From a virus (lineage: Duplodnaviria > Heunggongvirae > Uroviricota > Caudoviricetes), in IMG/VR virus record IMGVR_UViG_2693429623_000004: a DNA stretch of 6,381 nt; one strand, written 5' to 3'. Under the pieces are notes generated by a model, which searched no databases, was not told the DNA's origin, and saw nothing but the letters and a program-made list of their open reading frames with translations. Position numbers and translations under genes: made by a program. This document shows positions 1-6,381 of the stretch, in pieces. Numbering within the stretch: the stretch's first letter is position 1; each line of letters opens with the position of its first letter.

Positions 1-19
1 AAACCTCGGTTTACAGGAA
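1..19 (+). other. Serine DNA-invertase crossover site (gix/cix/pix/mix type), left half cut by window edge
   Basis: Bases 1-19 read AAACC-TC-GGTTTACAGGAA: partial left half-site, 2-bp core TC, full right half-site. The reverse complement TTCCTGTAAACCGAGGTTT matches the Mu gix 26-bp site as I recall it (from memory, not searched). It lies in frame with the fibre ORF (NLGLQETVN). Confidence 0.75.
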
Positions 20-1030
20 ACGGTAAACAAGGCTGGTAACGCCGTGCAAAAAAATGGCGATACGTTGTCCGGTGGACTTACTTTTGAAAACGACTCAATC
101 CTTGCCTGGATTCGAAATACTGACTGGGCAAAGATTGGGTTTAAAAATAATTCGGATGCAGACACCGATTCCTACATGTGGTTTGAAACAGGCAACAACG
201 GCAATGAATATTTCAAATGGAGACACCGCATCATTGGCACCCGGCCTAAAGACCTGATGAATCTTAAATGGAATGCTTTGTCTGTTCTTGTTGAAGCCCT
301 TTTCAGCAGTGAAGTGAAAATATCGACAGTCAATGCACTGAGGATATTTAATTCATCTTTTGGTGCCATTTTTCGTCGTTCTGAAGAATGCCTGCATATC
401 ATCCCTACACGAGAGAATGAAGGGGAAAATGGTAATATAGGGCCACTACGCCCCTTTACGCTTAATCTCAGAACTGGCCGGATAAGCATGGGGCATGGTC
501 TTGATGTTACAGGGGATATATTTGCAAACCGTTTTGCAATTAACAGTAGTACCGGCATGTGGATTCATATGCGTGACCAGAATGTTATTTTGGGACGTAA
601 TGCGGTATCCACTGATGGTGCTCAGGCTTTGCTCCGTCAGGACCATGCCGACCGCAAATTTATGATTGGCGGTCTGGGAAATAAGCAATTTGGCATCTAC
701 ATGATTAATAACTCAAGGACAGCCAATGGCACCGATGGTCAGGCGTACATGGATAATAACGGGAACTGGCTTTGCGGCTCGCAAGTTATTCCCGGCAACT
801 ATGGCAATTTTGATTCCAGATATGTGAAAGATGTTCGACTTGGTTCACAGCAATATTATGGAGTGAACAACTGGCAAACATGGAATTTTCAGTGCCCGTC
901 AGGCTATGTACTGACGGGGATTAACGTACAGGATACCGGAAAAAACTCTGCCGATAATATTGCAGGCGTTCATTACAGGCCAGTGCAAAAGTATATAAAT
1001 GGCACTTGGTATAATGTGGCGAGTATTTAA
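2..1030 (+). CDS. Tail-fibre protein, variable C-terminal region (cassette A); 5' partial, constant part upstream of window
   Basis: Frame is open from base 2 through the crossover site ([25 protein letters not shown]...); the ORF track starts it at 44, which is a GTG. Stop TAA at 1028-1030. The C-terminus ...GYVLTGIN...[13 protein letters not shown] recurs as a motif in the other cassettes and is followed directly by a tfa gene, the typical fibre-chaperone arrangement. Confidence 0.85.
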
Positions 1031-1031
1031 T

Positions 1032-1559
1032 ATGATGCACTTAAAGAACATAAAAGCAGGTAATGCTAAAACAGTGGAGCAGTATGAGTTAACAAAGAAG
1101 CACGGAGTCATCTGGCTTTACTCTGAGGACGGAAAAAACTGGTATGAGGAAGTGAAGAACTTTCAGCCAGACACAATAAAGATTGTTTACGATGCAAATA
1201 ATATTATTGTCGCCATCACCAAAGATGCCTCCACGCTTAACCCTGAAGGTTATAGCGTCGTTGAGGTTCCTGATATTACAGCTAATCGTCGTGCTGATGA
1301 TTCCGGTAAGTGGATGTTTAAGGACGGAGCTGTGGTTAAACGGATTTATACGGCTGACGAACAGCAACAACAGGCCGAATCACAAAAGGCCGCATTGCTT
1401 TCCGAAGCTGAATCAGTCATCCAGCCGCTGGAACGCGCTGTCAGGCTGAATATGGCGACGGACGAGGAACGCACACGACTGGAAGCATGGGAACGCTACA
1501 GTGTTCTGGTCAGCCGTGTGGATACGGCAAAGCCAGAATGGCCACAAAAGCCTGAGTAA
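1032..1559 (+). CDS. tfa: Tail-fibre assembly chaperone (Tfa family, lambda Tfa / Mu U / e14 TfaE-like), copy 1
   Basis: ATG at 1032 sits 1 nt after the fibre stop (TAATATGATG). The product [11 protein letters not shown]...EWPQKPE is about 175 aa and paralogous to three other ORFs in the window. The ORF-track start at 999 is an upstream in-frame extension that overlaps the fibre. Confidence 0.9.
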
Positions 1560-1575
1560 AAATTAAGGCCCGATA
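1364..1575. repeat. Direct repeat, copy 1 (3' end of tfa1 plus tail through half of the terminator hairpin)
   Basis: Matches 2389-2600 at offset 1025 with only a handful of mismatches by eye (e.g. ggcaaagccagaatgg vs ggcaaatcctgaatgg). Confidence 0.85.
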
Positions 1576-2055
1576 NATCTTTATAAAGATATTGAATCTA
1601 ATGGCAGCAATTTTAGATTAAAAAGTAATTACCGCCACCACATTACATTCGCCAACGAAGACGGAAGAATTCGTATGTTTTTGTGGAAAGATAACGGTGG
1701 TGATGGTGTTCATATTAATAACGGTTCAGATGGTGGTGGTGATTTCATTTTTAAAACAGATGGGGGATTTGCGCTGGGAAGTGGTGCGCAAGTTGCGTCT
1801 AGTGGCGATATTTATGGTTCAGTGTGGGAAAACAACTGGTTAAGCACATGGCTGCATAATCATGTCGTTCGGGATATTCGTCTTGGCAGCATTGAATATA
1901 AAAACGTATGGCGCGACTACGGCTTTGGCGATGCGTCAGGTTATGTTTTAACAGCCGCAATTAACAGCAATGCGGATGATATTGTCGACACTGTTGCCAG
2001 AAGGCCAATTCAGAAATTGATTGGGGGAATATGGTACAACGTGGGGAGTGTTTAA
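1567..2055 (+). CDS. Tail-fibre C-terminal cassette B, 5'-truncated and without a crossover site; possibly silent
   Basis: Frame is open from 1567, immediately after an in-frame TAA at 1564-1566, and reads [45 protein letters not shown]...[38 protein letters not shown]. First in-frame ATG is at 1675 (the ORF-track start). Stop TAA at 2053-2055. No AAACC-NN-GGTTT site lies upstream. Confidence 0.7.
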
Positions 2056-2056
2056 G

Positions 2057-2584
2057 ATGATGCACCTGAAAAATATTAAGGCCGGGAATCCGAAAACACC
2101 GGAACAATACCAGCTAACTAAAAAAGCGGGCGTGGTATGGCTCTTTTGCGAAGATGGCAAAAACTGGTATGAGGAACAAAAGAATTTTCAGCCAGACACC
2201 ATAAAAATTGCTTACGATGAGAACAACATCATCGTTGCTGTCAGTAAAGACGTTTCAACTATTAATCCTGAAGGGCTAAGCATAGTTGAAGTTCCTGATA
2301 TTACGGCAAATCGTCACGCAGACAATAACGGAAAATGGATGTTTCTGGATGGTAAAGTAGTAAAGAGGGAATATACAGAACAGGAACTGCAACAACAGGC
2401 CGAATCACAAAAGGCCGCATTGCTTTCCGAAGCTGAATCAGTCATCCAGCCGCTGGAACGCGCTGTCAGGCTGAATATGGCGACGGACGAGGAACGCACA
2501 CGACTGGAAGCATGGGAACGCTACAGTGTTCTGGTCAGCCGTGTGGATACGGCAAATCCTGAATGGCCACAAAAGCCTGAATAA
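2057..2584 (+). CDS. tfa: Tail-fibre assembly chaperone (Tfa family), copy 2
   Basis: ATGATG at 2057 follows the cassette B stop by 1 nt. Product [23 protein letters not shown]...EWPQKPE. The ORF-track start at 2021 is an upstream extension. Confidence 0.9.
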
Positions 2585-2600
2585 AAATTAAGGCCCGATA
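2389..2600. repeat. Direct repeat, copy 2 (3' end of tfa2 plus tail)
   Basis: Near-identical to 1364-1575. Confidence 0.85.
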
Positions 2601-2609
2601 GCGGGCCTT
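2590..2609. terminator. Palindromic hairpin between convergent tfa2 and tfa3; likely intrinsic terminator
   Basis: AAGGCCCG-ATAG-CGGGCCTT is an 8-bp GC-rich stem with a 4-nt loop. On the - strand it is followed by AATTTTTAT. The A-run before it on the + strand gives a U-tract for transcripts reading in the - direction. Confidence 0.7.
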
Positions 2610-2960
2610 CTCTCATTCTGGTTGTTCGGGAAACGTTACTGGCAGGCTGGAGGTGTCTGTGGATTCAACCTTCTGCGCATAGAGCATCCACTCGGTTAAT
2701 TTTTGTTTATTCTCATCGGAAATGATGCCCAGCTGTAGCTGAGAGTCCCACAGCTGGGTTTTATCCCTGACGAGCTGCAGCAGGCTCTGCTTTTCATTTT
2801 CCGCTTGTTGCCTTTGCTCTTCCTCGGTATAAGTTCGCTTTATCACCGCACCATCTTTGAACATCCAGTTGCCCGAAATATCAGCCCGGCGATTTGCTGT
2901 AATATCAGGCAACTCAACGACACTTAAACCTTCTGGATTAATTGCTGATACATCCTTGTC
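2590..2960. repeat. Direct repeat, copy 1 (hairpin plus 3' part of tfa3)
   Basis: Matches 3580-3950 at constant offset 990 with scattered point mismatches by eye; similarity drops toward the 5' halves of the genes. Confidence 0.8.
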
Positions 2961-3146
2961 TATAGCAATAATTATTCCCTCAACTGTGTAAGCCAGTTTT
3001 ATTGTATCCTCCTGAAAGTTTTTTAATTCCTCATGCCAATTTTTTCCATCTTCGGACCATAACCAGATAACATCAAAATTCTTTGTTAGCTGGTATTGTT
3101 CAACGGTTTTTGGATTACCTGCGACAATGTTTTTTAAATGCTGCAT
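2613..3146 (-). CDS. tfa: Tail-fibre assembly chaperone (Tfa family), copy 3
   Basis: Product [30 protein letters not shown]...[11 protein letters not shown]. The N-terminal part is conserved with copies 1 and 2; the C-terminal part belongs to the second class shared with copy 4. ATG at 3146 sits 2 nt after the stop of fibre fragment C. Confidence 0.9.
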
Positions 3147-3148
3147 GA

Positions 3149-3568
3149 TTATACCTGCGATACGTTATACCATGTTCCGTTAATTAACTTTTGTATTGGT
3201 CTGAATACTGCCGGATCATCACCATCGACTTCACCGATAATACCAAGCCCCGTGATTACATGGCCTGATTTTTCATACATCACGCCTTTCTTCATGGTCT
3301 AAACAACTCGTGTGCCAAGTCTGACATCTCTCACATAGCGGGAATCAAAGTTACCGTAATCCGAGGGATTAACACGTCCCGTAATATTTATGGTTTTATT
3401 ACTTTGAATGCTTCCGGAGACAAAGCGCATAACATGGACGTTATTAGCATAAACATCCAGATTACCATCGCCTTTTTGTTTAAAGCCCGTGTCATTATCA
3501 CCCAATACAATCGAATTACCGCCAAGAGCACTGGATGTTCCGATACCCAGTGCACCAACATCTCCTGC
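3149..3568 (-). pseudogene. Tail-fibre C-terminal cassette C: 5'-truncated, no crossover site, interrupted by an in-frame TAG
   Basis: The - strand reads [89 protein letters not shown], then TAG (3299-3301), then in the same frame [49 protein letters not shown] and TAA (3149-3151). Region 3362-3568 duplicates 5176-5415 of cassette E apart from a 33-bp deletion. The 5' end runs into the N-run at 3569-3579. Confidence 0.7.
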
Positions 3569-3579
3569 NNNNNNNNNNN

Positions 3580-3599
3580 AAGGCCCGATATCGGGCCTT
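3580..3599. terminator. Second copy of the palindromic hairpin, downstream of tfa4 on the - strand
   Basis: AAGGCCCG-ATAT-CGGGCCTT. It is the same stem as 2590-2609 and is flanked on one side by the 11-nt N-run. Confidence 0.6.
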
Positions 3600-3950
3600 G
3601 TTTCATTCTGGTTGTTCGGGAAACGTTACTGGCAGGCTGGAGGTGTCTGTGGATTCGACCTTCTGCGCATAGAGCATCCACTCGGTTAATTTTTGTTTAT
3701 TCTCGTCGGAAATAATGCCCAGCCGTAGCTGTGAGTCCCATAGCTGGGTTTTATCCCTGACGAGCTGTAGCAGGCTTTGCTTTTCATTTTCCGCTTGTTG
3801 CCTCTGCTCTTCCCCGGTATAAGTTCGCTTTATCACTACGCCATCTTTGAACATCCATTTACCTGAAATATCAGCCCGGCGATTTGCTGTAATATCAGGA
3901 ACCTCAACGACGCTTGCGCCTTCCGGATTAATTGCTGAAACATCCTTTTC
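3580..3950. repeat. Direct repeat, copy 2 (hairpin plus 3' part of tfa4)
   Basis: Partner of 2590-2960. Confidence 0.8.
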
Positions 3951-4136
3951 AATACAAATAATAACGCCGTTGTGGTCATAGACCATTTTCAACGTATCAG
4001 GCTGAAAGTTCTTTTGTTCCTCATACCAGTTTTTCCCATCCTCTGTATAAAGCCATTTGATGTTAAATTGTTTCGTTAGCTGGTATTGCTCTTTTGTTTC
4101 AGGATTACCAGCAGAAATGTTTTTTAAGTGCATCAT
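3603..4136 (-). CDS. tfa: Tail-fibre assembly chaperone (Tfa family), copy 4
   Basis: Product [40 protein letters not shown]...[17 protein letters not shown] at 4136 sits 2 nt after the cassette D stop (TAA 4139-4141). Confidence 0.9.
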   Translation of the reverse strand: MMHLKNISAGNPETKEQYQLTKQFNIKWLYTEDGKNWYEEQKNFQPDTLKMVYDHNGVIICIEKDVSAINPEGASVVEVPDITANRRADISGKWMFKDGVVIKRTYTGEEQRQQAENEKQSLLQLVRDKTQLWDSQLRLGIISDENKQKLTEWMLYAQKVESTDTSSLPVTFPEQPE

Positions 4137-4138
4137 CG

Positions 4139-5090
4139 TTAAATACTCCCCGCGTTATACCACGTCCCATTAATGCAATACTGAATTGGCCTTGCCTGAG
4201 TTGTATCAATTAGTTCATCTCTGTTTGAGTTAACGGAACCGGTAACAACATAACCTGACCTGTCAGACCATCCGGGACCATTCCATGTCTGAACAGATAA
4301 CAGACCACCAAGGCGAATACCTGTAATAAACCTTGAGTTACATTCTGCCTGCGTATATGCACCAACATCTCCCGCAGAGGGTTTGCGGGTTGTGGTGTAA
4401 AACTCTGACCAGTCAGCTTCAAAGCCATAACCATCACGCGCTGAACGATAAAAAATACCGCCGTTCCTGTAATTCACGCGGAACTGTACAGCAGGGCAGC
4501 TCCCCGTATTCATATTGAAGTGGAGGATTAATGTCGATGCGCCACCAATGTTTGCGTTATAGACCCCGCTATTCCAGTTCCAGCCAACAGCTTTATCATT
4601 TCCGACAGTGCTTCCTGTTTGCCCTAAAGCAAATGCAGGTTGTTGATTTTTCGTGTTGTAGTCTCGTCGCCAGCCAGGAGCGTAAGCATCACCATGATTA
4701 ATATAAGTGAATTGAGCGTTAGTAATTCCGCCACCGCTGGACGTGCTCGGCGTGGTAACGCGTATGGTCATTGCGCCGCGAGTGCCAATAACTTCCACCA
4801 CAGCACCTGCAAGACAAATATTTCCGCAACCTGTATCTGTAATGACCTTATTATTTGCATAAGCCCATGAGCCTTTGCACATCCAGTAAGGATGGTTAAA
4901 TGCTCCCTGACTCTCCAGCCACGAAATAAATTGCGCGGTTGTCCAGACCTGACTATCGCCACCAATATTCAGCCATGAGCTATATGCGCGGCAGGCACCA
5001 ATATTTTTGGTGAAGGTATCTTTCCCCGGAATATCTGCGCCGTTCTGGTTTTTCTGTAATGCGCCAGAAGCCTGATTTACCGTTTCCTGT
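4139..5090 (-). CDS. Tail-fibre variable C-terminal region (cassette D), alternative to cassette A; 5' end runs into crossover site and N-run
   Basis: The ORF-track entry 4139..4882 stays open upstream to 5090 in the same frame: ...QETVNQASGALQKNQNGADIPGKDTFTKNIGACRAYSSWLNIGGDSQVWTTAQFISWLESQGAFNHPYWMCKGSWAYANN... It begins with the same QETVN encoded by site 1 and ends ...GYVVTGSVNSNRDELIDTTQARPIQYCINGTWYNAGSI. Confidence 0.85.
4357..4640. repeat. Diverged direct repeat, copy 1 (shared fibre module in cassette D)
   Basis: Aligns with about 5397-5680 in cassette E at roughly 80-85% identity by eye. It encodes AFALGxTGSTVxNDKAVGWNW...GSCPAxQFRxNYxNGGIFYRSARDGYGFEADWSEFYTT..RKPSAGDVGA. Confidence 0.7.
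5084..5090 (-). other. Crossover site, visible edge only (TTCCTGT...), remainder masked by N-run 5091-5175
   Basis: Bases 5071-5090 (CCTGATTTACCGTTTCCTGT) match the reverse complement of window bases 11-32 apart from a few substitutions; the remainder AAACC-GA-GGTTT... is predicted inside the Ns. Orientation is inverted relative to site 1. Confidence 0.65.
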
Positions 5091-5175
5091 NNNNNNNNNN
5101 NNNNNNNNNNNNNNNNNNNNNNNNNNNNNNNNNNNNNNNNNNNNNNNNNNNNNNNNNNNNNNNNNNNNNNNNNNN

Positions 5176-5888
5176 CGAGGGATTAACACGTCCCGTAATA
5201 TTTATGGTTTTATTACTTTGAATGCTTCCGGAGACAAAGCGCATAACATGGACGTTATTAGCATAAACATCCAGATTACCATCGCCTTTTTGTTTAAAGC
5301 CCGTGTCATTATCACCCAATACAATCGAATTACCGCCAAGAGCACTGGATGTTCCGATACCCAGTGCACCATTCAGTTGACCACCAGATAACGGCAGTGC
5401 ACCAACATCTCCTGCTGAAGGTTTTCTGGTGGTGTAAAATTCGGACCAGTCGGCTTCAAAACCATAACCATCACGGGCTGAACGATAAAAAATACCGCCA
5501 TTTTTATAATTAATCCGAAACTGAGCTGCAGGACAACTTCCTTCTCCCATATAAAAATGAATAATTAACGTTGATGCACCACTAATAGTTGCGTTATAGG
5601 CTCCGCTACTCCAGTTCCATCCAACTGCTTTATCATTCGCAACGGTGCTTCCTGTTTTCCCTAAGGCAAACGCACCAACATGACTTGCTTTTAATGTGAT
5701 ATCGGAGGAACCATCAAAAGCCACATTGCTTATTTTCCTGGCAGTTTTTAATTTTGCAGCTGTAGAAGCATTGCCGGATAGTTCACCAGAAAGGCCACCG
5801 CTGAATGTTTGTCGATTAGTCCAGGTATTCGCTGTACTGAGTAACGGTATTTTCTCCCCGCTTGTGCCGAGTTCTCGTAAACCGAGGT
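5176..5888 (-). CDS. Tail-fibre variable region (cassette E), third alternative; both ends in N-runs
   Basis: The - strand reads LGLRELGTSGEKIPLLSTANTWTNRQTFSGG...AFALGKTGSTVANDKAVGWNW...GYGFEADWSEFYTTRKPSAGDVGALPLSGGQLNGALGIGTSS...NKTINITGRVNPS. The 5' LGL is encoded by the crossover site at 5872-5888. The central block is shared with cassette D. Confidence 0.8.
5397..5680. repeat. Diverged direct repeat, copy 2 (shared fibre module in cassette E)
   Basis: Partner of 4357-4640. Confidence 0.7.
5872..5888 (-). other. Crossover site: TTCTCGTAAACC-GA-GGT then Ns
   Basis: A full left half-site TTCTCGTAAACC, core GA and the start of the right half-site are visible before the N-run. Orientation is the same as the 5084 site and inverted relative to site 1. 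It lies in frame with cassette E. Confidence 0.7.
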
Positions 5889-6300
5889 NNNNNNNNNNNN
5901 NNNNNNNNNNNNNNNNNNNNNNNNNNNNNNNNNNNNNNNNNNNNNNNNNNNNNNNNNNNNNNNNNNNNNNNNNNNNNNNNNNNNNNNNNNNNNNNNNNNN
6001 NNNNNNNNNNNNNNNNNNNNNNNNNNNNNNNNNNNNNNNNNNNNNNNNNNNNNNNNNNNNNNNNNNNNNNNNNNNNNNNNNNNNNNNNNNNNNNNNNNNN
6101 NNNNNNNNNNNNNNNNNNNNNNNNNNNNNNNNNNNNNNNNNNNNNNNNNNNNNNNNNNNNNNNNNNNNNNNNNNNNNNNNNNNNNNNNNNNNNNNNNNNN
6201 NNNNNNNNNNNNNNNNNNNNNNNNNNNNNNNNNNNNNNNNNNNNNNNNNNNNNNNNNNNNNNNNNNNNNNNNNNNNNNNNNNNNNNNNNNNNNNNNNNNN

Positions 6301-6381
6301 GTCACTGTATGCGGCATCTTGTCGTGCTGGTGGTGGAAGCCTAGAAAAAGTATCGGGTGTTGCTGAACCGTGTTGATACAT
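6301..6381 (-). CDS. Partial ORF of unknown identity reaching the right window edge
   Basis: Only 27 codons are visible (MYQHGSATPDTFSRLPPPARQDAAYSD) before the 412-nt N-run. The ATG at the window edge may be coincidental and the frame may continue beyond the window. Its relation to the fibre cassettes cannot be decided. Confidence 0.2.

Follow-up and report, generated by a model that had tools for sequence, protein, structure and literature searches.

The analysed stretch of viral DNA, hereafter the window, spans 6,381 nt and contains the tail-fibre cassettes A to E and the genes tfa1 to tfa4, which are arranged around two hairpins and interrupted by runs of N (Table 1). Its sequence was assigned to two segments, here termed X and Y, which are interleaved in the block order X5-X4-Y3-X2-Y1. 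The pieces of segment X are 6381-6301, cassette E (5888-5176) and 3568-1577, and those of segment Y are 1-1575 and 3580-5090. Parts of crossover sites are visible at 1-19, 5085-5090 and 5874-5888, with the remainder either under N or beyond the end of the window, and neither cassette B nor cassette C has a crossover site at its 5' end. Runs of N were found at all three X/Y joints (1576, 3569-3579 and 5091-5175), and a fourth (5889-6300) lies inside segment X. An initial annotation of the window, made from the sequence alone, had described cassette C as an internally stopped, truncated copy of cassette E placed after the tfa4 hairpin, and cassette B as its mirror image on the other strand, so that both convergent operons would end in a relic cassette beside a terminator. 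In the window as written, cassette C does adjoin the tfa4 hairpin and the 11-nt N-run, and the in-frame TAG at 3299-3301 is present when read on the minus strand.

Table 1. Features of the window. E+C denotes the single cassette of which cassettes E and C appear to be the two ends.
Feature	Position	Strand	Remarks
Crossover site	1-19	+	opens segment Y arm 1
Cassette A and tfa1	within 1-1575	+	segment Y arm 1
Left half-hairpin	1565-1575	+ side	end of segment Y arm 1, followed by N at 1576
Cassette B, 5'-less, 3' 479 nt	1577-2055	+	segment X
Cassette B and tfa2	1577-2584	+	other arm of segment X
Central hairpin of segment X, imperfect palindrome	2590-2609		between tfa2 and tfa3
tfa3	2613-3146	-	tail-fibre assembly chaperone paired with cassette E+C
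Cassette C	3568-3149	-	
Tip of the variable tail-fibre cassette E+C, final 213 nt	3149-3361	-	segment X
Amber codon TAG	3299-3301	-	cassette C
Second showing of 5176-5371, one 196-nt stretch of cassette E+C	3362-3557	-	
11-nt tail ACATCTCCTGC	3558-3568	-	borders the N-run; makes the apparent 33-nt in-frame deletion
N-run, 11 nt	3569-3579		unsequenced joint (scaffold gap) between segments X and Y
Segment Y hairpin, perfect 20-nt palindrome AAGGCCCGATATCGGGCCTT	3580-3599		between tfa1 and tfa4; right after the tfa4 stop; resembles a bidirectional terminator
tfa4	4136-3603	-	segment Y
Cassette D	up to 5090	-	segment Y
Segment Y arm 2 (hairpin, tfa4, cassette D, crossover-site start)	3580-5090	-	
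N-run, 85 nt	5091-5175		joint between segments Y and X
Cassette E, opening 713 nt of cassette E+C	5176-5888	-	starts in a gix-like crossover site
Partial gix-like crossover site	5874-5888		5' end of cassette E; remainder under N
N-run, 412 nt	5889-6300		at the crossover site inside segment X
81 nt of segment X	6301-6381		right end of the window

The match of 3362-3568 in cassette C to 5176-5415 in cassette E, on which the annotation was founded, was borne out. Positions 3362-3557 and 5176-5371 are identical over 196/196 nucleotides, which is far beyond chance, and the full alignment contains a single 33-nt gap flanked by GGTGCACTG direct repeats. Cassette E has 33 additional nucleotides, TTCAGTTGACCACCAGATAACGGCAGTGCACCA, ahead of the 11-nt ACATCTCCTGC that is found in cassette C, where the deletion junction reads GATACCCAGTGCACCAACATCTCCTGC. 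This junction returned no exact match in IMG/VR, the species-representative genomes or the metagenome contigs and was likewise absent from the 26 related loci that were fetched, the 11-nt tail at 3558-3568 thus being unique to the window. The 33 nt missing from cassette C of the window are present in the NCTC86-type loci L001 and L002.

Cassette E (5888 to 5176) was joined in silico to the tail of cassette C (3361 to 3149) to give a 926-nt query with the TAG included, which was found verbatim and contiguous in 16 N-free loci, namely six IMG/VR contigs and ten NCBI chromosomes of 4.8-5.0 Mb. The chromosomes include S. sonnei CP026802, and most of the ten loci contain IS1- or IS3-type transposase genes. 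When IMG/VR was scanned with a pattern that accepts both alleles (TAG/CAG), 13 contigs were obtained, 6 of them with TAG. In every N-free relative, the base that follows window position 5176, the last of cassette E, is position 3361 of cassette C. The block 5176-5888 was 100% identical in L005, L007, L009 and L012-L015, with the C tail contiguous to it, and in the IMG/VR contigs window positions 1574/1767-3557 and 5176-5888 fall on overlapping parts of a single stretch. In L009, these blocks map to 696-2678 and 179-891, respectively, and the duplicated 196 nt correspond to 696-891. The adjoining tfa3 matched Pfam Caudo_TAP (E=4.8e-34), and its exact protein occurs in 4,765 blocks of a public assembly index, downstream of E+C in 10 of the 10 places shown. 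The tip encoded by cassette C is homologous to residues 424-502 of the C-terminal domain of the Mu tail fibre S (PDB 5YVQ). Taken together, these sequences indicate that cassettes C and E are the two ends of a single tail-fibre cassette, E+C, and the proposal that C is a separate, truncated relic of E found no support, given that 5176 runs directly into 3361 in N-free relatives. As to the question raised in the initial annotation, whether cassette E has a stop-free version of the tip, E shares the tip with its stop, the two being one gene. A crossover site hidden in 3569-3579 was also considered and rejected: the 11 N and their flanks are too short for a 26-bp gix-like site, and the position corresponds to the interior of cassette E+C in relatives. 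None is needed or expected there, the site of the cassette being located at the 5' end of E (5874-5888 onwards).

As a separate observation, the NCTC86-type segments (L001, L002 and L010) carry the E module on both arms, with C-like and A-like tips. The tips are joined at the same point, between GRVNPS and (D/N)YGNFDSRYV (window 5176/3361 and window ~800), which looks like a natural mosaic site for exchanging tips.

In relatives, segment X is ordered as crossover site, E+C, tfa3, hairpin, tfa2, cassette B and crossover site. The segment runs without a break in L012, L014, L015, L018 and L026 and was encountered in defective lambdoid and P2-like prophages. The segment X merged from the window (2,498 nt) differs from L015 at 2 bases only. 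Cassette B extends in relatives for a further ~420 nt to its own crossover site and is joined in L011, L012, L014 and L015 to upstream sequence ending in GGATTAC, immediately before ATCTTTATAAAG, so the view of B as a relic mirroring C was not supported. The orientation of the segment varies: in L014 and L026 the constant part continues into E+C, and in L012 and L018 it continues into B, the latter fusion giving a 918-aa product. The hairpin of segment X has one mismatch and is read through in the window.

The window shows cassette E in the non-expressed orientation, because the side with the open reading frame (ORF) from position 6381 is that of the invertase and methyltransferase. This ORF (MYQHGSATPDTF...; window 6301-6381) was evaluated as the constant part of the fibre and rejected, as it gave no Pfam hit, is located on the invertase/methyltransferase side of segment X and runs antisense to an annotated tfa pseudogene remnant (L014 6037-6330; L001 4617-4744). 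On this side, a class I SAM-dependent methyltransferase gene separates segment X from the invertase or what is left of it (within 5191-6434 in L014, at 3894-4562 in L001/L002 and at 1960-2628 in L017-L026), and tfa remnants are found close to it. In L014, the gene is flanked by two identical direct repeats (5191 and 6390), each comprising a crossover site and ~24 nt of a cassette start, and it looks like a moron captured in a former cassette position. In the IS-rich chromosomes L017, L019-L023 and L025, an IS3-family element interrupts cassette B ~315 nt ahead of the stop codon (about 5400-6600), and both arms of segment X are defective in these chromosomes. L026, the only one of the chromosomes with segment X that was identified as S. 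sonnei, is outside the IS3-interrupted set.

Segment Y is ordered as crossover site, cassette A, tfa1, hairpin, tfa4, cassette D and crossover site, and resides in P2-like prophages. Window positions 1-1575 and 3580-5090 are 99.94% and 100% identical, respectively, to the P2-like prophage segment of E. coli FDAARGOS_943, in which the two blocks adjoin without a gap and have the 11 nt AAGGCCCGATA in common. When joined through this overlap, the resulting segment Y (3,075 nt) is present verbatim in contig L028, and in both L016 and L028 the hairpin joins window position 1575 straight to 3591. The block 3580-5090 was further found to be 100% identical in L016, L028-L030, L032-L034, L036 and L037, including S. 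sonnei 53G HE616528. The placement of cassette C after the tfa4 hairpin is therefore not supported as a genomic position, because that hairpin is contiguous with tfa1 in other genomes. The segment Y hairpin is a perfect 20-nt palindrome and lies exactly where segment Y is broken in the window, and the segment X hairpin is intact; perfect palindromes may act as assembly break points here.

None of the X/Y joints of the window was found in N-free sequence. The hairpin-C and hairpin-B junctions were absent from 5,426 complete E. coli genomes, and the hairpin-B junction gave 0 matches in IMG/VR, in which sequences with literal N may escape matching. Block 1 stops exactly at the last base common to the X and Y hairpins, with the lone N at the point where the two sources diverge. 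Cassette B starts directly after this N (1576), which itself follows half of the 3580-3599 hairpin (1565-1575), and both apparent truncations, of B and of C, coincide exactly with N-runs. The 412-N run corresponds to 262 nt in seven of seven relatives (L002, L003, L010, L012, L015, L018 and L024). Since 412 N stand for 262 nt, the lengths of the N-runs are size estimates, and their reading as exact-length masks was rejected for 5889-6300. At positions 2482 and 2485, within tfa2, the window reads G,G as opposed to A,A in all segment X relatives. G,G is the state of tfa1 in segment Y, and creates a 168-nt exact repeat (1364-1531 = 2389-2556). These are the only mismatches to segment X, they are of the Y type and they fall inside this X/Y repeat, which argues for repeat cross-talk in assembly; the substitutions reflect either such cross-talk or gene conversion between two prophages. 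Finally, the ends of the window match contig ends in independent drafts, with L012 beginning at window position 6381 and the 1.4-kb Logan contig L027 equalling window 1-1393 and ending 30 nt into the tfa1/tfa2 repeat.

With gaps at every joint, other verbatim partners for either side of each joint and a mismatch in gap size, the window is very probably a chimeric scaffold of two ordinary invertible segments, and the relic cassettes beside terminators would not be a real feature. The X/Y joints appear to be scaffolding errors, and we infer that segments X and Y reside in one genome. The record would probably be a gapped scaffold from an S. sonnei-type draft genome, in which contigs of the two segments became interleaved. 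Mixed segment orientations within the culture, along with shared repeats, would cause contigs to break at crossover sites, and the truncation of cassette C, its placement beyond the tfa4 hairpin and the 196-nt duplication would most likely be products of assembly and gap closing. Three observations do not fit this scenario smoothly. Two overlapping contigs of one locus do not normally share 196 nt, simple interleaving leaves the 11-nt tail and its 33-nt deletion unexplained, and the 412-N run preserves the reading frame, as expected of an exact mask, although this happens by chance in one case out of three. The 196-nt duplication plus the 11-nt tail would be explained by an error of the gap closer, by a minority variant or by a further copy of segment X.

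The third of these possibilities was weighed in its own right. Here, the scaffold would still be chimeric, but 1577-3568 would derive from a second copy of segment X with a real 33-nt in-frame deletion produced by slippage at GGTGCACTG, and the strain would possess two E/C-type cassettes. A single locus does not readily yield the 196-nt overlap and the deletion tail, and segments of the X type occur in both lambdoid and P2-like prophages, so two copies per genome are possible. However, the deletion junction was met in none of the collections searched nor in the 26 related loci, and the support comprises only 11 nt that border a gap. We thus regard a second copy as unlikely.

It is quite improbable that the window is contiguous, as originally annotated, with a B'-tfa2-hairpin-tfa3-C' module inserted in the palindrome of segment Y, cassettes B and C as relics and a separate cassette E upstream of D. 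Such an arrangement would agree with the block order as written and with the 11-bp direct repeat AAGGCCCGATA (1565-1575 and 3580-3590), which brackets the 2-kb block like a target duplication. The three lesions of cassette C (5' truncation, 33-nt deletion and TAG) would fit a decaying copy, and L001, L002 and L010 do contain two E modules that differ in their tips. Nevertheless, at least three illegitimate joints would be required, all of them under N's and in no database searched, whereas intact loci elsewhere match both parents at 99.9-100% identity. Moreover, the N-run length is not exact (412 versus 262), and the TAG, present in the full-length cassette of 16 loci, is no peculiarity of a relic. 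Contiguity of the window was additionally contemplated in the form of an Sv-tfa/tfa-Sv' module inserted in the palindromic terminator of a P2-type segment, giving a ~5.9-kb composite in which the site-less cassettes B and C would constitute a silent archive. This is very improbable; were it true, B and C would reach an expressed gene only by homologous exchange with cassette E. The notion that the TAG, one base away from CAG, is a sequencing error of this record can practically be dismissed, as it is refuted by the recurrence of the same TAG in the same context in 6 IMG/VR contigs and 10 NCBI chromosomes.

The TAG at 3301-3299 is in frame, 49 codons ahead of the natural stop, and corresponds to a single C-to-T change of CAG (Gln). 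Alignment with orthologous cassettes, the check suggested by the initial annotation, revealed that its conservation is partial: TAG is present in 16 loci (L005, L007, L009, L013-L015 and L017-L026) and CAG is found in L001-L004, L006, L008 and L010-L012. As L011 and L012 have the same segment X at 99.8% identity and keep CAG, TAG arose within this lineage. The 71-nt context of the TAG had no match at 100% among the 5,426 complete E. coli genomes, and the allele pattern had none in the one-genome-per-species contigs, in which the Shigella/E. coli representative is probably devoid of the segment. The codon falls within the tip domain, which shares homology with the C-terminal domain of Mu S, and costs the protein its final 49 residues, the conserved end among them. 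A stop codon in place of the sense codon of close homologues, recurring within an identical 926-nt sequence in 16 loci, points to a genuine pseudogenising mutation, one of the options first put forward, and not to a one-off sequencing error. The truncated E+C fibre would be non-functional. In L014 and L026, the amber cassette is in the expressed orientation. Shared by an entire lineage of these prophages, the CAG-to-TAG change would leave the E+C fibre variant dead in either orientation of the segment. The prophage carrying the amber cassette is decaying.

A 48-codon ORF (3295-3149, minus strand) starts at an ATG two codons past the TAG and was called as a gene in several chromosomes, e.g. at 3852-3998 in L019, L021 and L026. 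By eye, no Shine-Dalgarno-like sequence was found upstream of it in the window sequence, and the ORF is probably a by-product of the nonsense mutation. Reinitiation at this ATG was considered, but no ribosome-binding site is evident.

The chimeric scaffold carries a caution for the analysis of such loci. Scaffolding easily goes wrong in mosaic invertible tail-fibre loci, with their shared crossover sites, common tfa 3' ends and palindromic terminators, and N-bounded chimeras can mimic exotic multi-cassette or relic-cassette systems. The biology that remains is a lineage-wide amber codon in one arm of a Mu-type segment in S. sonnei-type prophages, where one of the two switch positions leads to a truncated fibre that is presumed to be non-functional. 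This fits the general gene decay of IS-rich, S. sonnei-type genomes, and the amber mutation is a routine prophage pseudogene.

The C tip and tfa3 are 93% identical to H/G of the P2-like Yersinia phage L-413C and 98.5-98.7% identical to the 3' end of stf from E. coli NCTC86-type lambdoid prophages. The gene is annotated as intact in the L-413C and NCTC86-type records, of which the NCTC86-type L001 and L002 read CAG, whereas this CAG is replaced by TAG in the window and in the S. sonnei-type loci.

The multiple-inversion region Min of p15B has six crossover sites, and the window resembles it superficially, with more than two tail-fibre cassettes and three visible crossover sites. Unlike in Min, cassettes B and C of the window lack crossover sites, and the N-bounded blocks resolve into two two-site segments; more than two sites and cassettes in contiguity were not found, as the contiguity of X and Y rests on N's only.

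The G segment of Mu (Gin/gix), the C segment of P1/P7 (Cin/cix) and the P segment of e14 are invertible tail-fibre segments. Segments X and Y are like the Mu G family in having two inverted 26-bp crossover sites, which read TTATCnAAnACCTCGGTTTACnnGAA compared with TTATCCAAAACCTCGGTTTACAGGAA in Mu. One plus-strand and one minus-strand site matching Mu gixL/gixR were found for segment X in L012, L015, L018 and L026, and for segment Y in L016 and L028. As in Mu G and P1 C, two convergent modules, each with a fibre C-terminus and a tfa (Caudo_TAP) gene, surround a terminator-like hairpin, such that inversion swaps the C-terminus on a constant 5' part. A serine invertase gene is present in relatives, outside the region covered by the window: L014 4539-5144, beside the segment, matched Pfam Resolvase (1.5e-50) and HTH_7, and L016 8147-8734 is an annotated recombinase. 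L018, L022 and L024 have only a Resolvase remnant of 60 aa. At the DNA level, segment Y is 87-92% identical to the segments of Mu, SfMu and P1/P7, whereas the tips of cassettes B and E+C differ from the Mu/P1 types and are of the P2 H/lambdoid Stf type. In further contrast to Mu G, the invertase of segment X in the lambdoid context is the 60-aa remnant, a SAM-methyltransferase gene and tfa remnants lie in between, and E+C bears the amber codon. Inversion in trans by the invertase of another prophage is established for Gin, Cin, Pin and Hin, and the inversion of segment X could be driven in the same way. Segments X and Y are thus ordinary members of the Mu G/P1 C family, with nothing outside the known kinds.
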